The notes under the pieces: model-generated
Database searches by the model: none
What the model was told of the DNA's origin: nothing
What the model saw: only the letters and a program-made list of their open reading frames with translations
Position numbers and translations under genes: made by a program
In this document: piece after piece, positions 24,437-43,042 of the stretch
Numbering within the stretch: the stretch's first letter is position 1
Layout: each line of letters starts with the position of its first letter
Source of the DNA: a virus
Reading direction: 5' to 3' (one strand)
Length of the DNA stretch: 64,000 bases
Virus record (IMG/VR): IMGVR_UViG_3300032224_001591
Span: 1-64,000 of that record

Positions 24437-24480
24437 ATTATCCATATTCCTTCAATATTTATAGGTAACATTCTGCTTTG

Positions 24481-25281
24481 ATGATTAAATTATTAAAAAT
24501 ATTGAAAGAGGCGACTAATTCACCTAAAGCAATTATCCTTGCAGGCGCTCCAGGTGCCGGTAAGGGTACAGTGCTAGGTGGTTTAAATTTAAGTAACTTA
24601 AAAGTATTTAATTTAGACGATACAATTGCCGCTTTATCTAAACAACAAGGTTTTACTCTAAACCAAAAATTAGCTAGCGCAGAAGAACGTAGTAAATTTG
24701 CTACCGCAATGGCCGCTGCAACTAAAAATATAAAAACAGAATTAATCCCTAATGCGATAGCAAATGGGGATTCTTTTATATTAGACGGCACTTCAGCATC
24801 AGTTAAAAATACAGTTGAACTTAAAAAACAACTTGAAGATGCTGGTTACGATGTGATGATGTTATATGTTTATACTGATCTAGAAACAGCATTAGAACGT
24901 AACGAAAAACGATTTGAAAAATCTAAAGGCGAAGACAGAAGTTTATACCCTGGAGCTGTATTAAGCACATGGTTGAGCGTAGCTAAAAACTTCGAAACAT
25001 ATCAACAATTATTTGGTGATAATTTTGTATCGGTATCAAATGTAGGTAACGATGAAACTTTAAAGGATATTGAAGCGATATTACAAAAATATATCTATCC
25101 ATTTACTCCAAAAGACGCTAAACCAAAAACCGATAAGGAAAAAGCAAAATCAAAAGAACAAGCAGCTAAATTAAACGCTGATATGCAAGCCTTCCTAAAC
25201 TCAGATCAAACTCAAAACATAATCAATTCATCTGTTTCTGTAAAAGAGGCACAATCAAAAATTAAACAATTCTTATCATGA
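24481..25281 (+). CDS. Zeta-toxin/AAA_33-like P-loop kinase with MIKLxxILxE leader
   Basis: GAPGAGKGT, FILDGT, ETALERN.KR. Confidence 0.75.
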   Translation: MIKLLKILKEATNSPKAIILAGAPGAGKGTVLGGLNLSNLKVFNLDDTIAALSKQQGFTLNQKLASAEERSKFATAMAAATKNIKTELIPNAIANGDSFILDGTSASVKNTVELKKQLEDAGYDVMMLYVYTDLETALERNEKRFEKSKGEDRSLYPGAVLSTWLSVAKNFETYQQLFGDNFVSVSNVGNDETLKDIEAILQKYIYPFTPKDAKPKTDKEKAKSKEQAAKLNADMQAFLNSDQTQNIINSSVSVKEAQSKIKQFLS

Positions 25282-25664
25282 GAACATCATTAGTGAATTT
25301 ATTAAAAGAATCCGCTGAATTAGGCGAATTAAATGAAATGGAAAAACATCCTGACTTAGTAGACGAAGTAGGTAAGTTTTTTGTAGTAGAAAAACCATCT
25401 AAAGACAGTACTAAAGATGATATTTTATTTCAATCCGATATTTTCTACTTTGCTAATCAAATAAAAGGTGGATTAAAACCTGAAAACGTTGTAGGTTTAT
25501 ATAAAAATAAATCCGATGCTAATCGTATAGCAACTGAACTTTTAAAAGCACGTGATACACAATTAGATGAACTTAAAGCTTCAATGGAAGAATATAGATC
25601 AACTAAAAAAGATATCGAAGATAAAAAATCTAAAGCAAAGGAATTAATCCAGAAACTTAAATAA
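25278..25664 (+). CDS. Hypothetical protein
   Basis: Coupled ORF with LVNLLKES leader and C-terminal coiled coil. Confidence 0.7.
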   Translation: MRTSLVNLLKESAELGELNEMEKHPDLVDEVGKFFVVEKPSKDSTKDDILFQSDIFYFANQIKGGLKPENVVGLYKNKSDANRIATELLKARDTQLDELKASMEEYRSTKKDIEDKKSKAKELIQKLK

Positions 25665-26746
25665 TGAATCAACTCGTTCAAGAATTAATTAAGGATCTTT
25701 TAGAACAAAAGAATCAAGACTATACTATTTACTTAGATATAGATGATACATTAACCAATTATTCTGAACGTTTAAAGTCGATGATAATAGATGATCCTGA
25801 AACAGGCGAAAAACGTCCTATTAAGGCATCTGATACTGTCGATAATTTAGAATTTTGGTCTAGTGCTAAATGGTTACCTGGTGCTAAAGAAATGGTAGAC
25901 TTTATTAAAAGTAATTTTGACAAAGTAGAAATACTATCAGCCGTACCCGAATTATCTAAAGCAAAACAAGCTGAAACTGGAGAACGTTTTTGGAACGCTC
26001 CAATTTTAGGTAAAGAAGATTGGCTAAAAGATAATGTTGGAAATATTAAAACAAATTGGACAAGAAGCGGAAGCCAAAAAGCAGCGTTTGCTCGTCCAAA
26101 TACCATTTTAATTGACGATAAACCAGAAAATATTAGAGCATTTCAAAAGGCAGGTGGTATAGGAATATTATACGATAATCCTTCTAATGTTATAGCTCAA
26201 CTACAATCTTTAAAAGACCAACCAATTCAAGAAGCAATAGTTAGAGATGAAGTAGTTTGTGATAGCTGTGGATGGCATTGGCCCATTGCAGATGGTGGAG
26301 ATGATACATATGTTTGTCATAAATGCGGATATGACAATAATCCTTCAAAAGAAAACTACGAAAACGGTTGGAATCTCAAGAAAGGGGTCGTATCTTTAAC
26401 TAAATACATGATGGACAATGGTATGAATATTAAACCATTTCCTAAAATAAAGGTTATAAATGATGATATTGAAAATGCCGAAAAATTGCTTGGATATACA
26501 GCATATTACAATCCCGGTGAAAAATCAATCACGTTATATACCTTAGGAAGACACCCCAAAGATGTATTACGTTCTTATGCTCATGAAATGGTTCATCATA
26601 TGCAGAACTTAGAAGGTAGATTAGGTAATATTACCACTACCAATACAAACGAAGATGGAAATCTTCCGGATATAGAAAAAGAAGCATACGAAACTGGAAA
26701 CATAATGTTTAGGAATTGGGAAGATAAAGTAAAGAACAATGTATAA
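25664..26746 (+). CDS. Fusion: HAD 5'(3')-nucleotidase-like domain + Zn ribbon + HExxH peptidase-like domain
   Basis: YLDIDDTL...ILIDDKPEN; CDSC...CHKC; AHEMVH...EKEAY. Confidence 0.75.
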   Translation: MNQLVQELIKDLLEQKNQDYTIYLDIDDTLTNYSERLKSMIIDDPETGEKRPIKASDTVDNLEFWSSAKWLPGAKEMVDFIKSNFDKVEILSAVPELSKAKQAETGERFWNAPILGKEDWLKDNVGNIKTNWTRSGSQKAAFARPNTILIDDKPENIRAFQKAGGIGILYDNPSNVIAQLQSLKDQPIQEAIVRDEVVCDSCGWHWPIADGGDDTYVCHKCGYDNNPSKENYENGWNLKKGVVSLTKYMMDNGMNIKPFPKIKVINDDIENAEKLLGYTAYYNPGEKSITLYTLGRHPKDVLRSYAHEMVHHMQNLEGRLGNITTTNTNEDGNLPDIEKEAYETGNIMFRNWEDKVKNNV

Positions 26747-27272
26747 ATATAAATTAACAAGTAAAATACAGCAATTGAGAGAGGAAGAAGAAGCATCCAA
26801 ACCACAATATACTATATATTGTGATATGGATGGAGTTATAGCTGACTTTGATAAGCGTTTTGAACAATTTTTTAAAATGTCTCCTAGAGAATACGAATCT
26901 AAATTTGGTAAAGAACAATTTTGGGACGTAATATCTAAAGAAGGCGTTAAGTTTTGGGTTGGTATTCCTTGGATGCCACAAGGAAAACAATTATGGGACT
27001 ATATCAAACAATATAATCCAATTTTGTTATCAGCACCTTCAAAAGAAAACGAATCACGTTTAGGTAAGAGATTATGGGTTAAAAATAATATACCTGGAAC
27101 TAAATTGATTTTAGCATCTCGTGAAACTAAACAAAACTATTCAAAACCAAACAAAATATTAATAGACGATAGACCTGATACCATCAGTGAATGGAACGCT
27201 AGAGGCGGAACCGGCATACTATTTATATCCACAGATCAAACAATTAACGATTTAAAACAACTAGGACTTTAA
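26739..27272 (+). CDS. HAD-family 5'(3')-deoxyribonucleotidase-like protein
   Basis: IYCDMDGVIADF...ILLSAP...GKRLW...ILIDDRPD. Confidence 0.85.
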   Translation: MYKYKLTSKIQQLREEEEASKPQYTIYCDMDGVIADFDKRFEQFFKMSPREYESKFGKEQFWDVISKEGVKFWVGIPWMPQGKQLWDYIKQYNPILLSAPSKENESRLGKRLWVKNNIPGTKLILASRETKQNYSKPNKILIDDRPDTISEWNARGGTGILFISTDQTINDLKQLGL

Positions 27273-27273
27273 C

Positions 27274-27612
27274 ATGGCATTCAGAAGAGTAATTTTCACA
27301 TCAGATAGTAAATTAGATACAGTTAAACAAGATATTAATCGTTTAATTGATACTAAAAATTTTCAAATTAAATTCCCGGATTGTAAAGTAGCAATCAAAC
27401 CATCAGTTAAACCTGACACTTTAATTGTTGACGTAAACGGAGAAGGTGCAGATTCAGTAGCTAAAAAATTAAAAGACTTAGGTAGTAAACACGGTGTTAC
27501 TGTTAAAATCAAAACAGACGTTAAGTTAACTCCGGCAAACGAATCTAAACTTATGAAAAAATCAGAATTTAGAGCAATGATTAAAGAAGAAATTCTTAAA
27601 ACACTTAAATAA
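27274..27612 (+). CDS. Hypothetical protein with C-terminal MKKSEFRAMIKEE motif
   Basis: Coupled ORF. Confidence 0.7.
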   Translation: MAFRRVIFTSDSKLDTVKQDINRLIDTKNFQIKFPDCKVAIKPSVKPDTLIVDVNGEGADSVAKKLKDLGSKHGVTVKIKTDVKLTPANESKLMKKSEFRAMIKEEILKTLK

Positions 27613-27617
27613 ATAAT

Positions 27618-27851
27618 ATGTCAAAAAATATTAACATATCAGAGTGGCAAAATAGATTATTAAATGAAGAATCATTATCTTATAACGATATATTCTCCGG
27701 TTTACCAAAAACAAATGCTATTGCTTCTGAATTAGGCGCTTACCTTGAATCTTTAGGAATTAAGGGTACTGTAGAATCATATAAAATACAAAGTTTATTA
27801 ATTAAACTATGTACTGAATATGAAAAAGAATTAAATGTAAAATATAAATAA
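27618..27851 (+). CDS. Hypothetical protein
   Basis: Coupled ORF; leader ends LLNEE. Confidence 0.65.
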   Translation: MSKNINISEWQNRLLNEESLSYNDIFSGLPKTNAIASELGAYLESLGIKGTVESYKIQSLLIKLCTEYEKELNVKYK

Positions 27852-28189
27852 TGAAATACTTAGGTAAAATAATAACAGCCGTAGCTATATTAGTATGCAT
27901 TTGGATGATGTACACATTCTTCCAAAGCAACGCTGCTAAATATGAACAATACGAACACGCAATTGATAGTTTATCTCACGAAGTAACTATACTAGACTCA
28001 GTACACGTTAAACAAGACAGTGTTATTGTAGTTTATCAAGACAGTATTGTTTTCTTAGACAACATCATTGAAGTTGAAAAAACAAAAATAGTTACAGTTG
28101 AGAAAAAATATAAAGAAATTCGTGACAAAGTACACGAATATAAACCAACTGAAATAGATTCATTTTTTAAAACCCGATACAATTATTAA
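27851..28189 (+). CDS. Membrane-anchored coiled-coil protein (spanin-like candidate)
   Basis: N-terminal TM helix, then a coiled coil with DSL/DSV/DSV/DSI. Confidence 0.5.
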   Translation: MKYLGKIITAVAILVCIWMMYTFFQSNAAKYEQYEHAIDSLSHEVTILDSVHVKQDSVIVVYQDSIVFLDNIIEVEKTKIVTVEKKYKEIRDKVHEYKPTEIDSFFKTRYNY

Positions 28190-28191
28190 AC

Positions 28192-28938
28192 ATGAAAAAA
28201 CAAATTAACGAATTTAAAAGAATGCAGCAATTAGCTGGTATTAAATTAAACGAAGCATACATCAATAAACAAGGAAATCTTATAAGTGATGCTGAATTTG
28301 TGGTTAAACAAACTGGTTTTTTTGATTTAATATTGATAGATAAAGAAAAAATAAATCTTAATGATTATATTAATTTTCAATCAACTCAATCTAAATGGAG
28401 TAATCAAAAAGTAGCTAATAGTATTTTTAACCAAATACTAGAATTATATAAAGGAACAGCACTTGAAAAATATAACAATACAGTTGGATTTATCCCTACA
28501 AAAAAAATAAATAGAGGCAATAATGTGTTTGATGCACCTTCATTAAGTTTAGACTTTATAGAAGGAATTGACAAAGTTGAAAATGGTGTATGGAAAGAAT
28601 GGTTATTACCACCATTATATATAGAAACTCCTATTGACCGAGAAGAATATTCATTAGAAGGTAGAACTTTTCCTGGTATTCCTGGTTTTACTAATAAACC
28701 TATTACTATAGGCCCTGGTGAAAAATCAAAAATTGCTACTAATCAAAATAGTGAAGAAGGAGATATTGAAAATAAACTAATGTATTTAGATATAACATAC
28801 ATACCTTTTATTTCTGTCCCTAAATATAAAGTAGGAACAGAAATAAAATATTCATATGATATCGAAACAAAATCTAATATTATTGATATGTTTAATGAAG
28901 TAGGATTAGACGCAATCTCTTATACAAAAAATAACTAA
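28192..28938 (+). CDS. Hypothetical protein with RMQQLAGI leader
   Basis: MKKQINEFKRMQQLAGIKLNEA. Confidence 0.7.
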   Translation: MKKQINEFKRMQQLAGIKLNEAYINKQGNLISDAEFVVKQTGFFDLILIDKEKINLNDYINFQSTQSKWSNQKVANSIFNQILELYKGTALEKYNNTVGFIPTKKINRGNNVFDAPSLSLDFIEGIDKVENGVWKEWLLPPLYIETPIDREEYSLEGRTFPGIPGFTNKPITIGPGEKSKIATNQNSEEGDIENKLMYLDITYIPFISVPKYKVGTEIKYSYDIETKSNIIDMFNEVGLDAISYTKNN

Positions 28939-29429
28939 TGAAATACTTATTTACTATATTATTATCTTTATTTTCTTTAACGGCTATGGCCACTATTAAA
29001 GATACAGTTGCAACTATAACAACACGTGATGCTAATCACAATGTTGTAGGACAACAAGCAATTGTATTTGAACATAAAGATACAACCAAAATAGAAATAC
29101 CAGCATATATCGCTAAACAAATGATTTTAGATTTGATGAGTGGTGATAGTGCTAAAGCACAATTAGCTATTGTTTATGATATGTTTAAAGCAACTGAAAA
29201 GAAAGTTGCGATGCAAGACAGTATGATGAAAGCATACCAACTTAAAGTTCAAACATACGCTAAACAAGTATTACTATATAAAGAAAAAGAACAACAATAT
29301 ATTAACTATACAAAAGATTTAAAAAAAGACGTTAAAAAGGCTAAAGTAAAAAATCACTTGGCAACAGGGGTTGGTGTACTAGCTATTTTAGGTGGTCTTT
29401 TATTTCTATTTGTAGCATCAGGAAAATAA
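28938..29429 (+). CDS. Exported coiled-coil protein with C-terminal hydrophobic helix (lysis accessory candidate)
   Basis: Signal peptide ending AMA, coiled coil, GVGVLAILGGLLFLF. Confidence 0.5.
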   Translation: MKYLFTILLSLFSLTAMATIKDTVATITTRDANHNVVGQQAIVFEHKDTTKIEIPAYIAKQMILDLMSGDSAKAQLAIVYDMFKATEKKVAMQDSMMKAYQLKVQTYAKQVLLYKEKEQQYINYTKDLKKDVKKAKVKNHLATGVGVLAILGGLLFLFVASGK

Positions 29430-29432
29430 TTT

Positions 29433-29999
29433 ATGTCAGAATCAGTTTTAAAAAAAGAGTTCCAACAACGCGATATAGAACGTATGCGTAACCTAATGAC
29501 AGGTAAGCATGGTGATAAAACGGTGGTTGGAATAGGTTACACTAAGCAAGAAGAGTTTCATAAAGAAGGTGACGTTTGGGAAGAAGATGGACGTAAATGG
29601 ACTATTAAGAATGGTATAAAACAAAATTTAACCAAACTTGATAAAGCAAAACAAGAGCTACATTTACCCCTATTTTGCTCACATTGCAACAATCTTATGA
29701 AACCCCATCTTGATAAACGTTTTTGGATTATGTATAAACGTTGCTTTAATTGTCAAGTAGATTTTGAGGCAGAGATTAGAAAACAAGGACTGTGGGAAGA
29801 ATATGAGAAAAACATTATCAATTCAGATATTGATTCTACAATTAAAGAATTTATGATTTGGAGTGATGAATATATAAATGAAACTGATTCATTCGTAACC
29901 GAAACCGGTGAAGTTGAAAAGTGGATAGGTAAGGGTAAAGAAGTGTTACAACAAAATGTTGAAGAAACAATTAAATACTTACAAAGCTTAAAAAAATAA
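29433..29999 (+). CDS. Zinc-finger protein
   Basis: CSHC...CFNC; EGDVWEEDGRKWTIKNG. Confidence 0.7.
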   Translation: MSESVLKKEFQQRDIERMRNLMTGKHGDKTVVGIGYTKQEEFHKEGDVWEEDGRKWTIKNGIKQNLTKLDKAKQELHLPLFCSHCNNLMKPHLDKRFWIMYKRCFNCQVDFEAEIRKQGLWEEYEKNIINSDIDSTIKEFMIWSDEYINETDSFVTETGEVEKWIGKGKEVLQQNVEETIKYLQSLKK

Positions 30000-30607
30000 T
30001 GGATTACATCATACCTGTATTAGTAGCGTTTATCACAGCTGTATTAGGACCTTTAGCAATGGAATGGGCTAAAGCTAAATTTAAATCTAAACCTAAAAAA
30101 TCACCAATTCAAGAAGCACTTGAAATGAATGAACTAGTTGACCATCAACTAGACTTAATTCTTGAAACCATTGGATGTGATAGAACGTGGATTATTCAAT
30201 TTCATAACGGTGGACATTTTTACCCAACAGGTAAATCAATCCAGAAATTCTCTATGTTTTATGAGAAAATTACTCCAAATTCATCTTCAATTCAACATAC
30301 ATTTCAAAATATTCCCGTATCTTTATTCCCTAAAATATTAGGTAAAATATACAAAGACGGAGAATTAGCAATACCTACATACGCTGAAGGCGAAACATAC
30401 GATTTAGAAACAATAGCAAAAGATTTAGATTCAAAATCATTTTATGCTGTTGGTTTATATAGTTTAGACGATCATTTAATTGGTGTTATGGGAATTGCTT
30501 ATAACAAAGAACATAAATTAACCAAAGACGAATGGATATTCGTACGTCAAAAAGTAGGCGTTATTGGAACATTATTAACAGATTATTTAAAATCAGTAAA
30601 AAAATGA
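29999..30607 (+). CDS. TM + GAF-like protein (T4 holin T-like architecture)
   Basis: Single N-terminal TM, then CDRTWIIQFHNG...SFYAVGL...LIGVMGIAY. Confidence 0.5.
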   Translation: MDYIIPVLVAFITAVLGPLAMEWAKAKFKSKPKKSPIQEALEMNELVDHQLDLILETIGCDRTWIIQFHNGGHFYPTGKSIQKFSMFYEKITPNSSSIQHTFQNIPVSLFPKILGKIYKDGELAIPTYAEGETYDLETIAKDLDSKSFYAVGLYSLDDHLIGVMGIAYNKEHKLTKDEWIFVRQKVGVIGTLLTDYLKSVKK

Positions 30608-30816
30608 AATCACCAGTCCCTTTCTTAAAACCAAAAACATACTATGAATCACCATCTAAACCAGCGGTTATAATGGATGAAATAGTAAATCAAGTAGATC
30701 CTACACCAGTAGTTGAAACTCAACCTGAACCGGAAATTAAAGTTATAATGAGCGGTGAACCGTCGCTAGATGCAATGGTTGAAGAAACTAAACCAAAATC
30801 AAAAAAATCCAAATAA
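30604..30816 (+). CDS. Hypothetical low-complexity protein
   Basis: ATGA overlap with the previous stop; Pro/Glu-rich with basic tail. Confidence 0.6.
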   Translation: MKSPVPFLKPKTYYESPSKPAVIMDEIVNQVDPTPVVETQPEPEIKVIMSGEPSLDAMVEETKPKSKKSK

Positions 30817-30860
30817 TACGAGATTCCCACATATTTATAACATATAAAATAAAAATAAAC

Positions 30861-32336
30861 ATGGCAAACAACTTTAAAAGAATGCAACTTATCGCTGGTT
30901 TGATAACTGAAAGCGAATATCGTGAATCAATGAGCGAAGCTGAAAATAAATTATCTTTAGAAGAAAAATTAAAAGGTTGGGTAGAATTTAACGCTGGTGG
31001 ATATGTAGATACTAGCGACATGGAAGATGAAGATAAAGATAAATTTGAACGTGAATTAAATACATTACTTCAAAATACTTTAAGAAAATTAGATAGTGAT
31101 CCATCTTTAAAAGATAAAATATTAAAGAATTTTGTTAACAATAGTTTAGATATTGTAGCAAAATATAGTATGGGTAATTATGGTGACTCTACTAGTTTTA
31201 GTCCTGAGGAATACAAAGAGGGTTTTTATGAATTTATAAGTAAAGATGATCCAATATCATCATTTTATGATATGAATGAGTCTAAATTAAACGAAAATAA
31301 AATTGGTGCTTTATTAAATACTGTAGCAGATGATTGGGGAGAAGATAGTGATTTATATAGTGATTTAGAAGATTCTCTTGCAGGTTGGACAGATAGAAAT
31401 GGTCAATTAACTCCTAAAGGTAAAATATCGATTAAAAATCTTTTATCTAACTGGGATTTATTAGATGATTATGGACATTTTTTAGATGATGAAGAAATGA
31501 ATGAAGGCGATACCGATTACGATAGAGCTAAAGACGCTAAACGTTTAGGTAAAAAAGGCGAAAAAGATATATACGGTGCTGGCGTTGAAAAAGGCGAAGA
31601 AATCGAAAAGAAAAAAATGAAAATGTCTGAACTTAAAGCAGCAATCAAAGAATTAGCTGAAATGGATGGTGCAGCCGTTACAAATGCAGATTATGATCCG
31701 GTAGCTGAAAGTGTTTGGTCAGTTTTACCTGCACGTATTCCTGAATTTATTCAAAAAATTAAAGATATTAAAGATGAATATCATGCTGTTGTGGGTAGTG
31801 ATGATGTATATGATGGTTTAGACCATGCTATTAGTGCTGCTGAAGAATTAATGAATTCTAAATTAAGCGAAGCTAAAAAAGACGAAAAAGTAAAATCAGA
31901 CAAATTCACTATAGGTACAGATAAATCAAATCCTCTCCATCCTTCTTTCTTTGTTTATAACACTGAAACTGGTGAAAAATCTAAAGTATTTAAAACAAAA
32001 AAGGAAGCTGAAGAATTAATGAATTCTAAATTAAATGAAGCTAAAAAAGATAAAGACGAAGAAATAGACGATAGTGAAACTATAGACACACCCAAAGGTG
32101 ATGAAGAAATAACAGCAGACGTTACAACAACAGATGTTGATCCTGATGTAAAAGCAGTACAAGATGCTTTAACTCAAGCTCAAGCAGCAGCCGAAAAATT
32201 AGGCGACGAAAAATTAACAGATCAAATTGGTAATACAATTACATTCTTTACACGTTCTCATATTGTTGAAAAACCAGGTGTAACTGCAGAATCAAACATC
32301 AAAGAACGTATAAATAAATTAGTAAAATCTTTATAA
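30861..32336 (+). CDS. Acidic modular protein with RMQLIAGL leader (putative internal head polyprotein)
   Basis: Repeated MNE/LNE/LSE linkers, internal direct repeat, upstream ATATTTAT. Confidence 0.7.
   Translation: MANNFKRMQLIAGLITESEYRESMSEAENKLSLEEKLKGWVEFNAGGYVDTSDMEDEDKDKFERELNTLLQNTLRKLDSDPSLKDKILKNFVNNSLDIVAKYSMGNYGDSTSFSPEEYKEGFYEFISKDDPISSFYDMNESKLNENKIGALLNTVADDWGEDSDLYSDLEDSLAGWTDRNGQLTPKGKISIKNLLSNWDLLDDYGHFLDDEEMNEGDTDYDRAKDAKRLGKKGEKDIYGAGVEKGEEIEKKKMKMSELKAAIKELAEMDGAAVTNADYDPVAESVWSVLPARIPEFIQKIKDIKDEYHAVVGSDDVYDGLDHAISAAEELMNSKLSEAKKDEKVKSDKFTIGTDKSNPLHPSFFVYNTETGEKSKVFKTKKEAEELMNSKLNEAKKDKDEEIDDSETIDTPKGDEEITADVTTTDVDPDVKAVQDALTQAQAAAEKLGDEKLTDQIGNTITFFTRSHIVEKPGVTAESNIKERINKLVKSL
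31839..32050 (+). repeat. 44-nt direct repeat pair flanking an in-frame cassette
   Basis: 31839-31882 vs 32007-32050, 42/44 identical, 168 nt apart. Confidence 0.9.
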
Positions 32337-32356
32337 ACAAAACAAAATAAAAGTAT

Positions 32357-32530
32357 ATGAACACACAAGAATTATTTGCAAAATTTGAAACTTTATATGA
32401 AGCTTTCAAAGCAGAACACGAAGGAAAATCTAAAGCAGCACAAGCACGTGCTAGAAAAATTGCAGGCGAAATTAAAAAATTAGCAGCAGAATACCGCAAA
32501 GCATCTGTTGCAGAAAGTAAAGCAAAATAA
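32357..32530 (+). CDS. Histone H1-like Hc1-family protein (not in ORF track)
   Basis: [57 protein letters not shown]; KAA..RARK....L...RK.S signature. Confidence 0.75.
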
Positions 32531-32531
32531 A

Positions 32532-34067: not shown

Positions 34068-34069
34068 AA

Positions 34070-34543: not shown

Positions 34544-34548
34544 TAACT

Positions 34549-35619
34549 ATGAACTTATTCGATAAATTTTTTGTAAAATATGGGTATAAATTCCCAAAAG
34601 GATATCCTGACATGAATAATGAGCAGGATGTTTTATTGCTCGAATCAATTTTATTAAATGAATTAGGTATTGACCTTGATGAAGGTTATAATCCCTTAAA
34701 ATTTTATGATCTTCAAAAATATGGAGGTCCTAGATTAGAAACATTAGCATCTAAGATTCAAAAAGGTGAACCTTTTGATATGGTAGGAGGTGAACAAGTA
34801 GTATTATTATTTAATAAACCAAAATATAAATCCTTATTTGTTAATAAAGATATTGAAGGTTTAAAAGCTTTAACTAAATCAAATATTAATTCATTTCCAT
34901 TCTTTGTAGATAAAAATGGAAAAAATTATTCTATAGGTGATTTACTTAAAACATCTGATTTTGGTGGTAAAGGAGGTGGATCTGGAACTCGAGTAGAAGA
35001 TATAGCATTATCTAATGTTGATGCTAAACTTCGTGAGTTAGGAACAATTGATGTTAAATTAAGTGAAAACGGCAAAGTATATAAAAACATAGTAGGAGCA
35101 ACCACAGTAAATGGTACTCCAAAAGCAGATTTTACATTTAATACAGAATCAGGTCCTGTAATTTTTATCTCTCATAAAGACGGATCAAAACCAAAAGATT
35201 TCCAACAATACTCAGGATTTCAAGGTTTATCAGATTATCCTGAAGTTAAATCATTTGTAGATGCTGTTAGACAAGCTACTGGAGGGGAATTAAAATCAGG
35301 TGATTCTTTTAGAAGAAAAATTAAAGATAATTCTATTAAATTAAAAGCAGTATATGGTCTAGATCAATCTGTAGGTAATTACGGTGTTAATAATTGTCAA
35401 GTAATACTTCAAGGTCCTATTAATTTGAAATTAGATAATGCTGATGATGCTTATTTAATAGATGCTAATCATAAAGTAATTAATCCTAATTTACCTGTTG
35501 GAGATTACGAACCTTATATGTATGTTACTTTTAGAAGTGATAGAAATAATGAAGGTATAAAAAATGCACGATTTGGAACATATCCTGAAGCATATAAACG
35601 AAATGCTACCGAAATTTAA
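34549..35619 (+). CDS. PD-(D/E)XK-like nuclease candidate behind an FPKGYPD leader
   Basis: E...TPKADF....IFISHKDG...FQQYSG. Confidence 0.5.
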   Translation: MNLFDKFFVKYGYKFPKGYPDMNNEQDVLLLESILLNELGIDLDEGYNPLKFYDLQKYGGPRLETLASKIQKGEPFDMVGGEQVVLLFNKPKYKSLFVNKDIEGLKALTKSNINSFPFFVDKNGKNYSIGDLLKTSDFGGKGGGSGTRVEDIALSNVDAKLRELGTIDVKLSENGKVYKNIVGATTVNGTPKADFTFNTESGPVIFISHKDGSKPKDFQQYSGFQGLSDYPEVKSFVDAVRQATGGELKSGDSFRRKIKDNSIKLKAVYGLDQSVGNYGVNNCQVILQGPINLKLDNADDAYLIDANHKVINPNLPVGDYEPYMYVTFRSDRNNEGIKNARFGTYPEAYKRNATEI

Positions 35620-35630
35620 TATTTATCAAT

Positions 35631-36635
35631 ATGGACAAAATTAAAAAATTAATCAAAGAAGCATTACTTAACCATAAACACGATTGTGGTTGTGGTTGTC
35701 ACGGTAAATGTGCTAAAGCACCTATGTTAAACGAAAACTTAGGCGCTAAAGTAATCATGACCGAAAACATGCAATACCATATTAATAATAAAAAAGCATT
35801 AACTGAAAACACATTCCGCTACGGTTCAAAAGCATTTTTAGATTTATGGGCTGAAGCTAGATATTTATATTCTCGCGACGTTATTAATTTATCAGGTGAA
35901 GATAAAATCATAGTAGAAACAACACATTTAGGTGAATATGGTTTATTTGAAGGTGAAATGGTACCTTTAGATTTACCTATCATGGAAGAAATGGATGAAG
36001 CTATAAGTGATGAAATTAAAGTAGGAGATATTGTAGGTAATACTGTTCAAGGATTTAATTTTAAAGTATTAAATATTAAAGGTGATAAATTAGAAGTTGA
36101 AAATATAAAAACAGGTAAAAAATTTGAAACATACATTGATAACATGTATTTACCTGTTATGGAAGAAGTTGATGAAGCTATAAGTGGTGCTGATAAAGAT
36201 GAAATTTTTGCTCTAATATCAAAAGTAAAACAACAAGGCAAATTATCCGATGATACTCAACGTATGTTGATGCAATGGATAAGTCATCCGGATGCTTCAA
36301 AAGAAGCAATCGTTCAAGTATTAAAACAATTAACTGGTATTGTGGGTGAAGCTAAAGATAATAAACACGTTTTAAATAAACCACATCGTGGTGGATCTAA
36401 AAAATTCTATGTTTACGTTCGTAATCCTAAAACTAAAAAAATTAAAAAAGTATCATTCGGTGATACATCAGGATTATCAGCTAAAATTAATAATCCTACA
36501 GCACGTAAAGCATTTTCTGCACGTCACGATTGTCCAAATAAAAAAGATAAAACTAAAGCTTCATATTGGTCATGTCATTTGCCTAGATATGCTAAAGCAC
36601 TAGGACTTAAATCTAACTTTTCAGGATTCTGGTAG
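35631..36635 (+). CDS. Modular protein with SH3-like cassette and basic C-terminal domain
   Basis: KKLIKE leader; IKVGDIV cassette between repeats; KKFYVYV...KKVSFGD...ARH.C...YWSC. Confidence 0.7.
   Translation: MDKIKKLIKEALLNHKHDCGCGCHGKCAKAPMLNENLGAKVIMTENMQYHINNKKALTENTFRYGSKAFLDLWAEARYLYSRDVINLSGEDKIIVETTHLGEYGLFEGEMVPLDLPIMEEMDEAISDEIKVGDIVGNTVQGFNFKVLNIKGDKLEVENIKTGKKFETYIDNMYLPVMEEVDEAISGADKDEIFALISKVKQQGKLSDDTQRMLMQWISHPDASKEAIVQVLKQLTGIVGEAKDNKHVLNKPHRGGSKKFYVYVRNPKTKKIKKVSFGDTSGLSAKINNPTARKAFSARHDCPNKKDKTKASYWSCHLPRYAKALGLKSNFSGFW
35971..36189 (+). repeat. 42-nt direct repeat pair flanking an in-frame cassette
   Basis: 35971-36012 vs 36148-36189, 37/42 identical, 177 nt apart. 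Confidence 0.85.
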
Positions 36636-36636
36636 T

Positions 36637-37533
36637 ATGAAAGATATAAAGAAAATAATACGAGAGGTTTTAAACCAAATCAACGAAAAAGAAGATCGTT
36701 GTAAACGTATTGCTGATCGCAAATACGATAAGCCATCAGCTTATAAATCGGGAGCTATCGTTCGTTGCCGTAAAGGTGATATTTGGAAAGATATAAAAGA
36801 AGACCAAATAAATGAATTAGATATATCTAAATATATTAGTTCTTGGATAGATACTAAAACATTAAAAAAAGCAAAAGATTTTCCTGAGTCTATATTTCTA
36901 TATCTTAAAAAAGAAGGATATCTTAATAAAGGAGAAATATATAGAATCTTAACTTTAGATCCCTTAGTTATCATACTAAAACAAAATACAGAATATATTG
37001 ATTTAGATAAATTTTTAGAAGATAATCAAGATATAGAACCATACGATGATTTATATAGTACATATCAAGATGAAAAAGAAGTTGTAGCTCGTTTAGATTC
37101 TAATTTTTCTTTTGAAGATATACATTATGCTAGTTCAACAGGTATGAATATGAATATGTTTTTAAAAAATTTAGATAAGAATAAATTAAAAAACGATATT
37201 TTAAAAAAAGATCAAGGTAAATTATTATCATTTACTAAAGATAAAGAAGCAGCTAATGATATTTTTTATACAGCTATTAATCATTTAGAAGATGAAGAAG
37301 AAGATGATGAGTTTTTAACAGAAGATGAATCTCTTCATAAATGGTTTCAACGTTCAGGTCCTAAAGGTAAAGAAAAAGGATGGGTAGATTGTAATGCACC
37401 TGATGGAAAAGGAGGATATAAATCGTGTGGTAGAAAAGAAGGCGAAAAACGCGCTAAATATCCTTCATGTCGTCCTACACCCGCACAATGTAAATCGCCT
37501 GGTAAAGGTAAAAAATGGGGTAAAACAAAATAA
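36637..37533 (+). CDS. Modular protein: basic Cys-containing ends with a central ART-like cassette
   Basis: PSAYKSGAIVRCRK; IYR...SFTKDKEAA; SLHKWF...WVDC...CGR...YPSCRP. Confidence 0.6.
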   Translation: MKDIKKIIREVLNQINEKEDRCKRIADRKYDKPSAYKSGAIVRCRKGDIWKDIKEDQINELDISKYISSWIDTKTLKKAKDFPESIFLYLKKEGYLNKGEIYRILTLDPLVIILKQNTEYIDLDKFLEDNQDIEPYDDLYSTYQDEKEVVARLDSNFSFEDIHYASSTGMNMNMFLKNLDKNKLKNDILKKDQGKLLSFTKDKEAANDIFYTAINHLEDEEEDDEFLTEDESLHKWFQRSGPKGKEKGWVDCNAPDGKGGYKSCGRKEGEKRAKYPSCRPTPAQCKSPGKGKKWGKTK

Positions 37534-37559
37534 TTAAATTAACTATTAAACTAAATAAA

Positions 37560-37931
37560 ATGAATCCAGAATTTTTAAAACTAGTATCGTATTTATTTCA
37601 TTCAGCAACACAAGTTCATATATTTCATCTTCAAACAAATTCATATGCTGAACATAAAGCATTGAATAAATATTATGATAAAATCGTTGATTTGACAGAT
37701 GGTTTAATTGAGTCTTTTCAAGGTAAATATGATATCTTAAGAGATTATGAAAACTATGCTTTAGACAACTATAAAGATAATACTCAAGTCATAACATACT
37801 TTAAAGCATTATTAAAAACAGTAGAAACTTTAAGAATGTCTGTAGCAAATGATTCTTATTTACAAAACCAAATTGATACTATAGTTGAATTAATTACATC
37901 TACTTTATATAAATTAAGATTTTTACACTAA
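37560..37931 (+). CDS. Ferritin-like (Dps/DUF5856-type) protein
   Basis: H.FHLQT.SYAEHKAL..YY.....TDGLIESFQG...LYKL. Confidence 0.75.
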   Translation: MNPEFLKLVSYLFHSATQVHIFHLQTNSYAEHKALNKYYDKIVDLTDGLIESFQGKYDILRDYENYALDNYKDNTQVITYFKALLKTVETLRMSVANDSYLQNQIDTIVELITSTLYKLRFLH

Positions 37932-38431
37932 TGATCAAATTATTAGATTTATTAAGAGAAAATGATCCTAAAAAAGGTACAGGTAAAAAACCCGAAGGAT
38001 CAGGTCGTAGACTTTACACTGATGAAAATCCGAAAGATACAGTACATGTAAAATTTAAAACCGCTCAAGATATAAAAGATACTTTATCTAAAACAACGTT
38101 TAAATCAAAACCACACGCTCGTCAATCTCAAATAATTAATTTAATACATCAACGAGTAAGAGCAGCGTATAATAAAGCAAAAGATCCTGAAGTAAAATCA
38201 AGATTAAAACGTGCTTTAGATTATATTGAAAAACGTAAAGAAGCATCTAAAAAGAAAACCCAACAATTACAAAAAGAAGCTTCATCTTTAGCACAACAAG
38301 CAGCTATTGCTATCGCTAAAAAGAAAAGTGGTAAATATGATAAAGAAGGTAAACGTATAAAAGAAACAGCAAATCCACAATCAGGTAAATCATCACCTTA
38401 TGGTTCAGGATATGCTCCCGTAAAAAAATAA
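37931..38431 (+). CDS. Basic hypothetical protein with MIKLLDLLRE leader
   Basis: DPKKGTGKKP.GSGRRLYTDENP. Confidence 0.7.
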   Translation: MIKLLDLLRENDPKKGTGKKPEGSGRRLYTDENPKDTVHVKFKTAQDIKDTLSKTTFKSKPHARQSQIINLIHQRVRAAYNKAKDPEVKSRLKRALDYIEKRKEASKKKTQQLQKEASSLAQQAAIAIAKKKSGKYDKEGKRIKETANPQSGKSSPYGSGYAPVKK

Positions 38432-38449
38432 TATATTTATAAATAAATT

Positions 38450-38767
38450 ATGGTTAAACTTATTCACTTATTAACTGAAGCTAAAGAAAGCTTTGAAACA
38501 TTTGCTAAAAATCGTTTAGCTGGTGCCGAAAAAATTATAGCTAATGCTAAAGAAAAGGGTGGTGATGCTTTATTAACGTATAATCACTTTAAAGTAAAAC
38601 CATCTTATTACAAGAAAGCAATAGATGGTAAATTTGATAAAGAAGCTGCTCAAAAAGAATTCGAAGAAACATATAAAAAAATCTCATTAGATATGACCCA
38701 AACCGAATTTCAAAAAGAAGTTGGTCGTTTAGAGGTATTAGGTGAATTATTAATAAGAGAAAAATGA
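38450..38767 (+). CDS. Hypothetical protein with MVKLIHLLTE leader
   Basis: ORF downstream of ATATTTAT. Confidence 0.7.
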   Translation: MVKLIHLLTEAKESFETFAKNRLAGAEKIIANAKEKGGDALLTYNHFKVKPSYYKKAIDGKFDKEAAQKEFEETYKKISLDMTQTEFQKEVGRLEVLGELLIREK

Positions 38768-39177
38768 TTAAATTATCAAAAATATTAAACGAGGCAGAAT
38801 TAGATAAATGTCCTGCTCCAACTCAAAATATTGAGTTAAATTTAAAAAATAGACAAATAGCTATTGAAAAATATGGCTATGGTCCTCTTAATCCTAATGA
38901 ACCAAATATAAAGTTTTGGGAAAAAAAGGTTGAAATGTGGAATCTTGATTCTATAGAAGAAGCTAAAAAATCACGTTGTGGTAATTGTGCGGCTTTTGAT
39001 ATCACTGAAAAAACATTAGATTGTATAGCTAAAGGAATAGGTAATGATGAAGGATCAGAAGATCCATTTGATGTAATTAAAGTTGGACAATTAGGATATT
39101 GTAGATTTTTAAAATTTAAATGTGCTGCTACTCGTACCTGTGATGCTTGGGTTGTTGGAGGTCCTTTAACTGATTAA
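38764..39177 (+). CDS. Cys-rich metal-binding protein (HiPIP-like spacing) with MIKLSKILNE leader
   Basis: RCGNCAAF...GYC....FKC....TCDAW. Confidence 0.6.
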   Translation: MIKLSKILNEAELDKCPAPTQNIELNLKNRQIAIEKYGYGPLNPNEPNIKFWEKKVEMWNLDSIEEAKKSRCGNCAAFDITEKTLDCIAKGIGNDEGSEDPFDVIKVGQLGYCRFLKFKCAATRTCDAWVVGGPLTD

Positions 39178-39181
39178 AATA

Positions 39182-39442
39182 ATGAGACCATATAAAGATA
39201 TAGAAATAACAGATAAATACATTATTCGTGAGTTTAATGAAACTATAGATCCTATAGAATTAATGTGGCATCGCGATGATGAAGATAGAATAGTAGAGAT
39301 AGTAGGTAAAACAGATTGGAAATTACAATTAGATAATCAATTACCAACTTCAATAAACGATCCTATATTTATCCCAAGACATGAATGGCATCGTATATTA
39401 AAAGGAACAGGAAAATTAAGATTAAAAATACATAAAATTTAA
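39182..39442 (+). CDS. Small cupin-like protein
   Basis: LMWHRD.EDR...W...FIPRHEWHRI. Confidence 0.65.
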   Translation: MRPYKDIEITDKYIIREFNETIDPIELMWHRDDEDRIVEIVGKTDWKLQLDNQLPTSINDPIFIPRHEWHRILKGTGKLRLKIHKI

Positions 39443-39443
39443 A

Positions 39444-39529
39444 GGTTAGATTCATTGCCTAGCCGCCTCAGTTGAGGATTTATATATAAGAGGAGTAGTG
39501 GCCCGACCTGTAAAGGTTGGGCTTTCTCT
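39444..39529 (+). other. Multi-hairpin structured intergenic element ending in a terminator-like stem
   Basis: GGTTAG/CTAGCC, CCTC/GAGG, GCCCGACCT-GTAA-AGGTTGGGC, AGAGGA/TTCTCT. Confidence 0.55.
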
Positions 39530-39531
39530 AT

Positions 39532-39562
39532 TTGGAAAACTAAAAAAAATTTATTATATTAA
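39532..39562 (+). promoter_or_regulatory. Host-sigma-type promoter (variant)
   Basis: TTGGA-N15-TATTATATTAA. Confidence 0.5.
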
Positions 39563-39590
39563 GGGGTTGGTCTGATGGAATTTTACAAGT

Positions 39591-39731
39591 ATGGAAGAAA
39601 ATATAATATATAAAATAGAATTACTTCAACTTATTGAATCTAAATATAATATTGAAATAAAAGATGAAGAAGTTGAAAATATAATTACATTTGAAGATTT
39701 AATTAATTTAATAAAAAACAAATTAAATTAA
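39591..39731 (+). CDS. 46-aa truncated acyl-carrier-protein-like peptide (not in ORF track)
   Basis: MEENIIYKIELLQLIESKYNIEIKDEEVENIITFEDLINLIKNKLN* resembles ACP helices II-IV. Confidence 0.65.
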   Translation: MEENIIYKIELLQLIESKYNIEIKDEEVENIITFEDLINLIKNKLN

Positions 39732-39733
39732 AT

Positions 39734-40381
39734 ATGACTCGAATTTATCTTGTTGAAAAATGTTATGGTGATCCTAATAAAGTTTATATTGGAAAAACTA
39801 AAAATAGTAGAATCCAACCTCATAAAGCTAAATATGGAAAAAATATAATATATACTATTATTGATCAAATTAATAGTTTAAACCATAAAGAATGGAAACC
39901 ATTAGAATCATATTGGATAGAACAGTTTAGACAATGGGGGTTTGAATTAATGAATATTAATAAAAATGGGGGACAAGGGCCTGGGGTTTATTCTGAAGAG
40001 TCTAAAAATAAAATGAGAAAAAAACGAAAACTTGGAACTGGTAAAAAAATAAGTAAAAAATTAAAAGAAAATAATCATTCCCAATATTACACAGATGAAG
40101 TTAGATTAAAAATAAGTAAAGGTAATAAAGGTTTATCTAAACCATTTACTAAAGAACATCAACAAAATATATTATTAGCTAAACGTAAACAAGCAAAACC
40201 GGTATTGATGTTTGATTTAGAAGATAATTTAATTAAAGAATGGGAAAGTAAAGGACAAGCAGCGGAGTGGGTAAAAGAACAAACAGGTAAAACAAGCAAT
40301 TTGGTTTCTCAAATAAAAGATTGTATATTGGGAAGACAAAAAACAGCTTTTGGATATAAATGGAAATATAAAATAATATGA
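39734..40381 (+). CDS. Free-standing GIY-YIG homing endonuclease-like protein (NUMOD repeats)
   Basis: RIYL...VYIGKT, LESYWI, SEESKNKM, KPVLMFDLEDNLIKEWES...KTAFGYKWKY. Confidence 0.8.
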   Translation: MTRIYLVEKCYGDPNKVYIGKTKNSRIQPHKAKYGKNIIYTIIDQINSLNHKEWKPLESYWIEQFRQWGFELMNINKNGGQGPGVYSEESKNKMRKKRKLGTGKKISKKLKENNHSQYYTDEVRLKISKGNKGLSKPFTKEHQQNILLAKRKQAKPVLMFDLEDNLIKEWESKGQAAEWVKEQTGKTSNLVSQIKDCILGRQKTAFGYKWKYKII

Positions 40382-41676
40382 AACATACTAAAAAAATTGT
40401 AATCGTAGGAAGTGGTGTAGCAGGTATCAATGCTGCAACTAAATTAGTGGATAATGGATATCCGGGTGAACTAATAACAATAATTGATAAAGGAAGTGAT
40501 CCTCACAATCGCTTACCTAGTGAAGTAATGTGTGGTTTTGCAGGAGCAGGAGCATGGAGTGATGGTAAATTAACTTATCACACATCAATTGGTGGTCAAT
40601 TATCAAAATATTGTGGTGAAGAAAAAGCAATGGAATTAATGAAACAAGTAGTAGATAACTTTACTCGTTTCCATCCAAAACCAGAAGAAATCTTTATGTC
40701 TGATCCACAGGAAGAACCTGAATTTATTAAACCATACTTTGGTTTGAGAATGTTTCCAGTATGGCATATTGGATCTAATTTCCTTCACGAGATTGCTAAA
40801 ACATGGTATCAATATTTGTTAGATAAAGGAGTTAAATTTATATGGAATACTGAAGTAACACATATTGATTTTGAATCTCAGAGTATTTTTACACATCATA
40901 AATTTCCCACATTTGATTATGATCAACTTATATTTGGTGTAGGTAAATCAGGTATTGACTTTGCTCAAAAACTATCTGATGACTATGAATTACCAACTGA
41001 ACCTAAATCAGTACAAATTGGAGTTCGATTTGAAGCACCACAAAAATATTTCCAAAAATTAATTGATATATCTTATGATTTTAAATTGTATCAAAAATTT
41101 GATAATGTTAGTTTACGTTCATTTTGTACTAACAATAACGCTGCATATGTTGCTGTTGAAGAAACTTATGGTGATGTTACATACAATGGTCACGCGAAAA
41201 AAGGTGAAGAATTTAGAAACAATATGACCAACTTTGGTATATTAATGGAAATTAAAGGTATCGAAGATCCATTTAAATGGAGTAGAGATGTAGTACAAAA
41301 ATTACAATTAAATAATACTGGATTATATTATTCACCTAATAATACTCGTACACCAGCATTAACATCTGAAGGTACTACAGTATCATCAGTTCAAATTTCA
41401 AATTTAGATACATTTAAAGAATCAATAGGTGTGTATGCTGATTATATTATTAACTTTATTGATGATATGAATAAAATATTTGATTTTGGTGATGATTGGG
41501 GTATGTATATTCCTGAAGTAAAATATCTTTCACCTGAACCATTAGTTAATTACGATAATTTATCTTTAACTGAATATCCAAATGTTCACTTTGTAGGTGA
41601 TGCTTTAAGTGCTAGAGGAATTACAGTATCAGGAGCGCACGGAATTTACGTTGCCGAATATTTATCGCAAAAATAG
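40378..41676 (+). CDS. FAD/NAD(P)-dependent oxidoreductase
   Basis: IVIVGSGVAG Rossmann motif; GFAGAGAWSDGKL; IGVRFE; RSFC; VHFVGD. Confidence 0.88.
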   Translation: MKHTKKIVIVGSGVAGINAATKLVDNGYPGELITIIDKGSDPHNRLPSEVMCGFAGAGAWSDGKLTYHTSIGGQLSKYCGEEKAMELMKQVVDNFTRFHPKPEEIFMSDPQEEPEFIKPYFGLRMFPVWHIGSNFLHEIAKTWYQYLLDKGVKFIWNTEVTHIDFESQSIFTHHKFPTFDYDQLIFGVGKSGIDFAQKLSDDYELPTEPKSVQIGVRFEAPQKYFQKLIDISYDFKLYQKFDNVSLRSFCTNNNAAYVAVEETYGDVTYNGHAKKGEEFRNNMTNFGILMEIKGIEDPFKWSRDVVQKLQLNNTGLYYSPNNTRTPALTSEGTTVSSVQISNLDTFKESIGVYADYIINFIDDMNKIFDFGDDWGMYIPEVKYLSPEPLVNYDNLSLTEYPNVHFVGDALSARGITVSGAHGIYVAEYLSQK

Positions 41677-41733
41677 CTATGACTTTTGACCCAAACGAAG
41701 AATATCCAGAATTCATCGAAAATTTTTAAAATT

Positions 41734-41982
41734 ATGAAAAAAGAAACATTAGAAACAAAATGTCTGAAACAAGCAGACGGAACTATCGTCTACTACTTCC
41801 AAAATAAAATGCACAATTGGGATGGACCAGCTTATATTCCCCAAGGTGATAAACGTAGAGCTGAATATTACTTATTCGGTGTAAAACAAACTAAAGGTCA
41901 ATGGTTAGAAGCTAAAAAAGATGTTAACGGCGTTCCGTTTCATAAAACAGCTGCGGGAAAACAAGCAGGAGTTCGTGCTTAA
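41734..41982 (+). CDS. Hypothetical protein (HxxDGPA family)
   Basis: MHNWDGPAYIP...EYYLFG; ATG41734. Confidence 0.7.
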   Translation: MKKETLETKCLKQADGTIVYYFQNKMHNWDGPAYIPQGDKRRAEYYLFGVKQTKGQWLEAKKDVNGVPFHKTAAGKQAGVRA

Positions 41983-41983
41983 T

Positions 41984-42014
41984 TTGGAGAAGCAAAATAA
42001 AAGTCGTATATTTA
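41984..42014 (+). promoter_or_regulatory. Host-sigma-type promoter, probably giving a leaderless mRNA
   Basis: TTGGA-N15-TCGTATATTTA, 4 nt before ATG42019. Confidence 0.7.
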
Positions 42015-42018
42015 CGTT

Positions 42019-42543
42019 ATGAAAATTGGTTTATGTGGTACAGTGTCTGTTGGGAAGACAACACTTGTCAATGCTCTTAAAGAAGTAGAGCAATTTAAAG
42101 ATTATGAATTTGCTACTGAGCGTAGTAAATATTTAAGGGATCAAGGTATTGCTTTAAATACTGATTCAACGTTAAAAGGACAAATTGTATTTGCTGCTGA
42201 ACGTGCTCTTGAATTAATGAAAGAAAATATCATTACTGATAGAACAATTTATGATGTTATAGCATTTACATTTAGTGCTGAATCAATATTAGATTTTGAA
42301 AAACGTGATTTTGCAGATTTAATGTTTCGTTTAGCAAAAGAATATGATGTTGTTATTTACGTATCACCAGAAGGCGTTGAAATTGAAGATAATGGTGTTC
42401 GTACAATAGATGCGAAATATCGTGATTCAATTGATAATGCTATTAAATTAATGTTAAATGAATGGCCTCCAGTTAAATTAATTGAAATTAAGGGTACAAC
42501 TGAGGAAAGAATTGAAACAATTAAAGGAGCACTATTTTCGTAA
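42019..42543 (+). CDS. AAA_28/NadR-like nucleoside/nucleotide kinase
   Basis: GTVSVGKTT, IITDRT.YD, EDNGVR. Confidence 0.8.
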   Translation: MKIGLCGTVSVGKTTLVNALKEVEQFKDYEFATERSKYLRDQGIALNTDSTLKGQIVFAAERALELMKENIITDRTIYDVIAFTFSAESILDFEKRDFADLMFRLAKEYDVVIYVSPEGVEIEDNGVRTIDAKYRDSIDNAIKLMLNEWPPVKLIEIKGTTEERIETIKGALFS

Positions 42544-42568
42544 TATTTATATATAAACACTAACGCAA

Positions 42569-43042
42569 ATGAAAAAATCTGAATTAAAAAAATATATTAA
42601 AGAAACAATTATTGCTGAGTTAATGGAAGAAACTACAATTGTAGGTCCTAAAACAGACCCAGCAAAAGCAACAGATATAGCTAAAAATGAAAAAACAGAT
42701 GTAAATACTGTAAAATCAGCAATATCACAAGCAAGAAAAACAAATACATCTATAAATGTAGCTGAAGCTAAAAAAGACGAAGAAGATACTGAAGATGATG
42801 AAGAAAAATTAGATAAAAAAGCACAAGCCGCAGCTAAAAAAGGTGGTGGTAAAGTAGGTAAATTACAACGCGTTACTGCTCAATTAAAAGAGTTAGAAAA
42901 AGAAATGAAAGAACTAGTAGGCAAATGGAAAAAAGCTGAAGGTAAAGAAAAAGAAACGTTACTAAGCAAATTAAAAGAAAAAACTAAAGCTAAAAAAGAA
43001 TTAGAAGCTTTAGAAGATAAATTAGCAGATGCTATTGTTTAG
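42569..43042 (+). CDS. Charged coiled-coil protein with MKKSELKKYIKE leader
   Basis: ORF downstream of ATATTTAT. Confidence 0.7.
   Translation: MKKSELKKYIKETIIAELMEETTIVGPKTDPAKATDIAKNEKTDVNTVKSAISQARKTNTSINVAEAKKDEEDTEDDEEKLDKKAQAAAKKGGGKVGKLQRVTAQLKELEKEMKELVGKWKKAEGKEKETLLSKLKEKTKAKKELEALEDKLADAIV

Follow-up and report, generated by a model that had tools for sequence, protein, structure and literature searches.

The window analysed here is a stretch of 64,000 nucleotides, the first 64 kb of the 147,248-bp genome of an uncultured T4-like phage (IMG/VR record IMGVR_UViG_3300032224_001591). The GC content is about 31%, and the + strand carries nearly all genes. Between 24.4 and 43.0 kb lies a locus in which unrelated proteins begin with short leaders that end in Glu and resemble the capsid targeting sequence of phage T4. 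The following proteins, named after the first position of their genes, carry leaders of class A or class B:

24481-25281, + strand: Zeta-toxin/PNK-like P-loop kinase with a 10-residue class A leader (24481-24510), assigned by Pfam, AlphaFold2 (AF2) and Foldseek
25278-25664, + strand: 128-residue protein with an 11-residue class-A-like leader (25278-25310; loose pattern, Glu at 11)
35631-36635, + strand: 334-residue Cys-rich protein with a 10-residue class B leader (35631-35660), a Cys knuckle and a second L-N-E site
36637-37533, + strand: 298-residue Cys-rich protein with a 10-residue class B leader (36637-36666)
37931-38431, + strand: 166-residue, very basic protein (isoelectric point of the mature form 10.2) with a class A leader (37931-37960)
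38450-38767, + strand: 105-residue protein with a class A leader (38450-38479); orthologues with class A or class D
38764-39177, + strand: 137-residue protein with seven invariant Cys and a class A leader (38764-38793); orthologues with class A or class D

The sequence-only reading had listed class A N-termini at 24481, 37931, 38450, 38764 and, in a looser form, 25278, and class B at 35631, 36637, 42569 and 9568, at the C-terminus of 27274 and inside 30861; all of these were found. It had also described the whole block as a large head-cargo locus. Leaders do cluster there, but only about 12 of about 31 genes in 24.4-43.0 kb carry one. Directly 3' of the locus lies a T4-type head module, in which Pfam recognised the Gp20 portal, an S77 protease and the Gp23 capsid protein:

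43106-44677: large terminase gene, head module
44702-46597: Gp20 portal, head module
48987-49589, + strand: prohead protease of the T4 gp21 family (Peptidase_S77, PF03420; Pfam E = 5e-29)
49795-50925, + strand: putative scaffolding protein; the N-terminus ends I-L-K-E before A, and the C-terminus is the class C motif
50962-52689, + strand: Gp23-family major capsid protein (Pfam Gp23 E = 1e-73)

Pfam and PHROG searches with the putative scaffolding protein gave no match. Aligned with T4-type gp21, the protease has the catalytic residues in place, as His75 and Ser128/129.

The rule for recognising leaders was taken from T4 work, which avoids a pattern fitted after the fact. T4 propeptides are 10-19 residues long and gp21 cuts after L/I-x-E; in the IPIII leader, residues 4 and 7 act in targeting and residues 8 and 10 in processing, and Asp at position 10 stops processing with targeting unaffected (PMC9026906). 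The T-even phage AR1 has the same register in Ip4, an IP-like open reading frame (ORF) and gp24, and at the gp23 cut site. Our strict register, hydrophobic residues at 4, 7 and 8 and Glu at 10, was applied to the whole genome (175 ORFs). Six ORFs fit it: 24481, 35631, 36637, 37931, 38450 and 38764. Shuffles of residues 2-16 give 0.25 fits on average, and none of 5000 reaches six; the internal rate of the pattern predicts 0.35 by chance. Among the 236 ORFs of four AT-rich phages without a T4-type head there was no strict fit, and there were five loose ones. The loose pattern, h-x-x-h-h-x-E (h, hydrophobic) with Glu at 9-14, fits ten ORFs of the genome against 1.5 expected. Eight of the ten are among the 28 called ORFs in 24.4-43.0 kb and two among the 147 elsewhere (Fisher p = 6e-6). 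By the same pattern, leaders are not equally common on replication genes: only 1 of 76 ORFs beyond 94.6 kb, in the replication and metabolism part, fits. The class B hexamer occurs five times in 46,690 residues, four times at an N-terminus. The leader ORFs start at their first start codon or within one codon of it. The leader signal is clearly non-random. In an AT-rich genome, codons near gene starts might by themselves yield N-termini rich in Lys, Ile, Leu and Glu, and Lys, Ile and Leu are enriched at N-termini relative to protein interiors. However, the composition-preserving shuffles never reach the observed count, the control AT-rich phages contain no strict fit, and the leader is conserved across homologues in which the codons vary. 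An origin from composition alone is therefore very improbable, and we consider it excluded by the shuffles and the control genomes.

Conservation was examined in about 158 related loci from the environment, numbered with an L, which encode 2185 distinct proteins. The nearest cultured relative is Flavobacterium phage vB_FspM_immuto (L001; host Flavobacterium sp. LMO8), with which alignment at the DNA level is possible in the capsid gene only; L004 is a near-identical strain (94-97% nucleotide identity). The environmental viral-contig collection is rich in related sequences, with at least 598 relatives of the terminase gene. An alignment of 28 kinase homologues, at a mean column identity of 42%, shows no variation at M1 and E10 and next to none at L4, L7 and L8. 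The leader pattern opens about 116 of the 120 closest kinase homologues among the matches listed. Leaderless distant cellular homologues were not present among these 120 matches, which are all close metagenomic relatives, and the start positions of family profiles were used in their place as the test that a leader lies outside the domain. Behind the class A prefix, residue 10 is Glu in 81 of 95 proteins and Asp in none, and most class A proteins lacking Glu10 have [I/L/V]-x-E four residues, or one helical turn, later. The N-terminus of the large terminase (43106-43150; also in L004-L083) is an amphipathic helix resembling class B, in which the Glu position varies between E, Q and D; this helix thus serves as an internal control for the constraint on the leader Glu. 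The 81 class A leaders are encoded by 79 distinct DNA sequences, and Leu4 is written with four synonymous codons (28, 23, 18 and 6 times). The mixed codons at Leu4 indicate selection on the peptide. A repeat at the DNA level or a translation signal was also considered as an explanation and is ruled out by the number of distinct DNA sequences and the mixed codons.

The leaders are modular with respect to the proteins that follow them. In the related loci, 351 of the 2185 proteins bear a leader. BLAST groups the payloads of these 351 into at least 74 clusters, and class A by itself is found on at least 17. A further leader, class D (roughly F-D-L-K-K-Y-L-x-E-x-K-L-x-E, about 17-19 residues), is common in relatives. 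It is found at 15807, 29632, 30633 and 37242 in immuto and in strain L004 (6517-7152), and there is none in the studied genome. Three payloads, those of 38764, 38450 and the kinase, are seen behind class A in some proteins and behind class D in others, and each of the two leaders ends in L-x-E just before the conserved part. In strain L004, one unrelated 79-residue class A gene replaces the three class A genes at 37935-39179, and a class D gene replaces 39562-40390; the breakpoints of these replacements coincide with gene boundaries. Thus the passengers are unrelated, as had been read from the letters of this genome, and the set of genes varies between strains. Upstream of the terminase gene, the related loci have leaders on 74 of their 479 genes, and downstream of it on 3 of 271; because the loci are not independent, this contrast is to be read as a pattern and not as a probability. 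Melnitz, a T4-like methylophage of the Kyanoviridae, has a partly syntenic block in which the leaders keep the same register, with a wording nearer to that of T4 itself; the arrangement therefore looks old within T4-like phages.

The payloads were described beforehand as a kinase, HAD phosphatases, a peptidase and nuclease-like, ADP-ribosyltransferase-like and Cys-rich proteins. The kinase, the nucleotidases and the Cys-rich proteins find support; no peptidase, nuclease or ADP-ribosyltransferase was found among the leader-bearing genes by Pfam, PHROG or PDB searches. The kinase matches Pfam Zeta_toxin with 59.9 bits (cut-off 22.3) and AAA_33 with 41.9 bits (cut-off 27). The family profile begins at residue 18, and the P-loop (Walker A) is at residue 22. 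Its AF2 model has a predicted local distance difference test score (pLDDT) of 87.5 overall and a mean of 48 for residues 1-10; the model shows the leader as a helix of low confidence, which a coil connects to the first strand. Foldseek matched the model to PezT/zeta, AvrRxo1 and PNK. The nucleotidase genes follow those of the kinase and the 128-residue protein:

25664-27272, + strand: two probable NT5C-type deoxyribonucleotidases (25664 and 26739; PHROG 2643)

Both have N-terminal extensions of about 15-20 residues with L-x-E sites, as do their orthologues in immuto and Melnitz. They match PHROG 2643 with E = 6e-22 and 1e-28, and the profile begins at residues 16 and 21, respectively. The Pfam NT5C scores of 18.0 and 22.2 bits are under the cut-off of 24.8, and the HAD-type D-x-D motif is visible. 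Thus the leaders fall outside the family profiles of the kinase and of the nucleotidases. Protein 37931 is of low complexity and recalls the T4 internal proteins. Protein 38764 had no Pfam match, and the ESM Atlas gave only unnamed viral clusters; the AF2 model of its family, made from 13 sequences, has a pLDDT of 43, too low for use. It contains a C-G-N-C-A-x-F stretch, which we take to recall high-potential iron-sulfur proteins. PDB sequence searches with 34549, 30861, 36637 and 35631 returned nothing informative. The counterpart of 36637 in strain L004 is without the middle part. The C-terminal domain of 35631 (residues about 240-320) also forms small proteins by itself in Pelagibacter and Roseobacter phages, which are unrelated to this phage, and in one archaeal virus; some of these proteins are annotated as HVA1 family. 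Pfam and PHROG gave no match between any payload and internal virion proteins or ADP-ribosyltransferases, that is, no homology to T4 IPI, IPII, IPIII or Alt; this weighs little because the T4 internal proteins are themselves mutually unrelated.

A short motif precedes several of the leader-bearing operons:

24455-24463, + strand: ATATTTATA motif, late-promoter-like, at the head of the locus; 33 copies in the genome

All 33 copies counted are on the + strand, and 26 of them fall inside a limit of 60 nucleotides before a start codon, at distances of 12-52 nucleotides, mostly of tail, baseplate and head genes (further positions are, e.g., 6482, 9554, 19413, 46608, 52753 and 56553). Copies also lie at 30831, 38433 and 42543 before leader-bearing operons, and a variant lies at 35618. 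The motif is the reverse complement of the TATAAATA core of T4. It is a probable late-type promoter.

In a T4-type gp23 alignment, the T4 gp23 maturation site aligns with V-S-E followed by V at residue 59 of the capsid protein, and a maturation cut is predicted after Glu59 (nucleotide 51138). The capsid protein does start at 50962 with the N-terminus quoted in the sequence-only reading, although the main maturation site aligns to residue 59 and not to the N-terminal L-L-E. Protein 47481 of the head module contains L-K-E followed by V and then a copy of the mature capsid N-terminus. These two sites make Val or Ile after Glu plausible for the protease, and Val or Ile after Glu is common in the leaders. 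The comparison with the T4 capsid targeting sequence stands in length, register and terminal Glu, and a matching gp21-family protease is encoded.

Taken together, we favour, with moderate confidence, the interpretation that these are capsid-targeting and processing leaders of the T4 type on a cargo set that varies between strains. The head protease probably trims the tagged proteins, and the virion probably contains them. Direct support comes from the register, the protease family with its catalytic residues, the conservation, the modularity of leader and payload and the clustering of the tagged genes. Core binding, cleavage, retention in the head and ejection are carried over from T4, so that every functional step is drawn by analogy. 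As in T4, the N-terminal amphipathic helix, with hydrophobic residues at 4, 7 and 8, would bind the cargo to the scaffolding core during prohead assembly. Once the shell has closed, the gp21-family protease (48987-49589) would cut after the [L/I/V]-x-Glu at the end of the leader, and the freed protein would remain in the head and exit with the DNA at infection. The tagged genes would form a collection of exchangeable cassettes next to the head genes, probably transcribed late. Confidence is higher for the six strict-register proteins and lower for 42569 and 9568, which are described below.

On this reading, a mechanism already known would extend to a distant lineage not described for it before, and the repertoire there is unusually large and modular. 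The capsid targeting sequence of T4 was reportedly described by Mullaney and Black in 1996. It is carried by IPI, IPII, IPIII and Alt and by the gp24 propeptide, and is removed by gp21 (reviewed in PMC9026906, PMC3012670). The leaders described here share with it the length of 10 residues, the hydrophobic positions 4, 7 and 8, Glu at 10 and the protease family, and, as with the T4 internal proteins, a conserved leader stands on unrelated cargo, including a small basic protein (37931) like the internal proteins. Unlike in T4, a single genome has at least three leader classes, and one payload can carry different classes; a zeta/PNK-like kinase and nucleotidases are among the predicted cargo, and about ten or more tagged genes stand in one block beside the terminase gene. 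Neither leaders nor payloads are homologous in sequence to the T4 internal proteins. The polymorphic internal-protein loci of T-even phages also have sequences like the capsid targeting sequence on non-conserved basic proteins (PMC9026906, PMC3012670), and there, too, the leader is constant while the tagged genes differ between close strains. The clade described here is far more distant and its repertoire is much larger, with at least 74 payload groups in the sampled relatives. In the giant phages SPN3US, phiKZ and 201phi2-1, the propeptides of ejection proteins are mostly 80-130 residues long with an A/S-x-E motif; cleavage by a homologous prohead protease likewise follows a Glu in a short motif, and the propeptides presumably direct proteins to the head (PMC5694885). 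The leaders here differ from these in having 10-20 residues and an L/I/V-x-E motif.

Besides classes A and B, the locus contains a third type of leader and some composite proteins:

28192-28938, + strand: 248-residue protein with a class C leader (28192-28254)
30861-32336, + strand: 491-residue modular protein with a class C leader (30861-30911) and an internal class-B-like copy (31623-31652, residues 255-264)
27553-27612, + strand: complete copy of a class B leader at the C-terminus of the 27274 protein (residues 94-112)

The class C leader copies the C-terminal peptide of the putative scaffolding protein 49795, has a protease-site end and tags unrelated proteins in the same genome. Classes A and B keep the T4 register, and their resemblance to the scaffolding protein is limited to its N-terminal cut site. 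Protein 30861 has two near-identical joints, which end in L-S-E and L-N-E before A, and it looks like a polyprotein-like chain of modules joined at L-x-E sites. In L095, L128 and L147, unrelated proteins end in the C-terminal motif of 30861. In 27274, the final 19 residues open with Met and are placed after N-E-S-K-L; this copy may have been left behind by a gene start that was displaced, or the tag may be used at the C-terminus. The existence of several classes admits a further idea, namely that classes A, B, C and D form an address code and each dock at a different site of the prohead core or shell. Such a code would set copy number, position or order of release. In this abundant environmental clade, exchange of leader and payload cassettes would then re-equip the set of injected proteins, among them the kinase, the nucleotidases and metal-binding proteins, strain by strain. 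We regard this as possible but improbable.

The links to the scaffolding protein also bear on another explanation, in which the leaders are head-assembly propeptides, but many tagged proteins belong to the prohead core or help to assemble it and are broken down or lost from the head as it matures; they would then not reach the host as payload. T4 gp67 and gp68 are examples of such factors. It is in line with this that class-B-like leaders stand ahead of the predicted cut site in 47481 and its homologues, that several relatives pair a class B N-terminus with the C-terminal motif of the scaffold, and that many payloads are small, charged and coiled-coil-like. However, folded enzymes such as the kinase (pLDDT 87.5) and the nucleotidases are unlikely parts of a scaffold, and the tagged set varies between near-identical strains, unlike essential core proteins. 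As an account of the leaders it is unlikely; for some of the tagged proteins, it is the main alternative to packaged cargo.

The helix might also be a docking tag for a partner outside the capsid. That partner might be a chaperone, a membrane or an enzyme that modifies the tagged protein, or the helix might be a protease degron. Any system of one partner and many clients fits a shared leader on unrelated proteins. The phage has putative GroES/GroEL genes, named from the resemblance of the product starts only, and terminase proteins bear look-alike helices. Nevertheless, Pfam revealed no radical-SAM protein or other candidate maturase among the genes of the locus. The register, the length and the invariant Glu, never replaced by Asp, agree with the T4 protease rule, and the genes cluster by the head genes behind late-type motifs. 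Docking to a non-capsid partner is thus quite unlikely, and we retain capsid targeting as the preferred interpretation.

Several observations weigh against capsid targeting. Exposure to the protease might be expected to leave the payloads depleted in [L/I]-x-E sites, but they are not; the observed/expected ratio is 1.27 versus 1.28 in other proteins, and depletion was rejected as a sign of exposure. The loose pattern is unspecific, since it also fits the large terminase N-termini of many relatives and five ORFs of Flavobacterium phage 11b. Moreover, the related loci are non-independent samples. To our knowledge, enzymes of nucleotide metabolism are unusual as head cargo. Literature searches found no virion proteomes with mapped cleavage sites for immuto-like or other non-enteric T4-like phages. 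Finally, two proteins with class B N-termini stand in places that suggest other roles:

42569-43042, + strand: 157-residue coiled-coil protein with a 12-residue class B leader, directly upstream of the large terminase gene
9568-9921, + strand: 117-residue protein, class-B-like at its N-terminus; baseplate wedge genes follow directly

Both had been listed under class B. Their N-termini are real, but 42569 occupies the position of the T4 small terminase subunit and 9568 sits in the baseplate module. Nearly all relatives have the 42569 gene in this position, directly 5' of the one for the large terminase. Comparison with T4-type gp16 by hhalign gave a probability of 0.2%, and a PDB profile search matched only coiled coils. 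Protein 42569 may therefore be cargo or the small terminase subunit (T4 gp16), and a role of 9568 as head cargo is doubtful.

If the tagged proteins are packed and injected, phages of this clade deliver strain-specific enzymes and small proteins together with their DNA, and a sequence rule would list the injected set from genomes alone. The T4 targeting rule, which has been used to engineer T4 heads, would then extend to a distant lineage with interchangeable leader types. Because the cultured relative immuto exists, the prediction is open to ordinary virion proteomics.

The leaderless genes of the locus include those for membrane or exported proteins, an FAD oxidoreductase and a thymidylate-kinase-like protein. 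A leaderless DUF5856 protein (37560-37931; PHROG 858, annotated as a starvation-inducible regulator) lies between leader-bearing genes and is kept in L004. In the 34549 protein, the first 45 or so residues (34549-34690), with a motif centred on G-Y-P-D-M-N-N and then L-L-L-E, stand as an N-terminal module of their own. Matches confined to this module, with 60-80% identity and differing C-terminal domains, occur in more than 60 related loci (among L084-L161), and in strain L004 the module is kept and the C-terminal part differs. The start of a 215-residue ORF at 39734-40381 resembles a GIY-YIG homing endonuclease, with no Pfam match for the ORF. In strain L004, a gene with a class D leader is found in its place, and this replacement suggests that the ORF is a mobile insertion.

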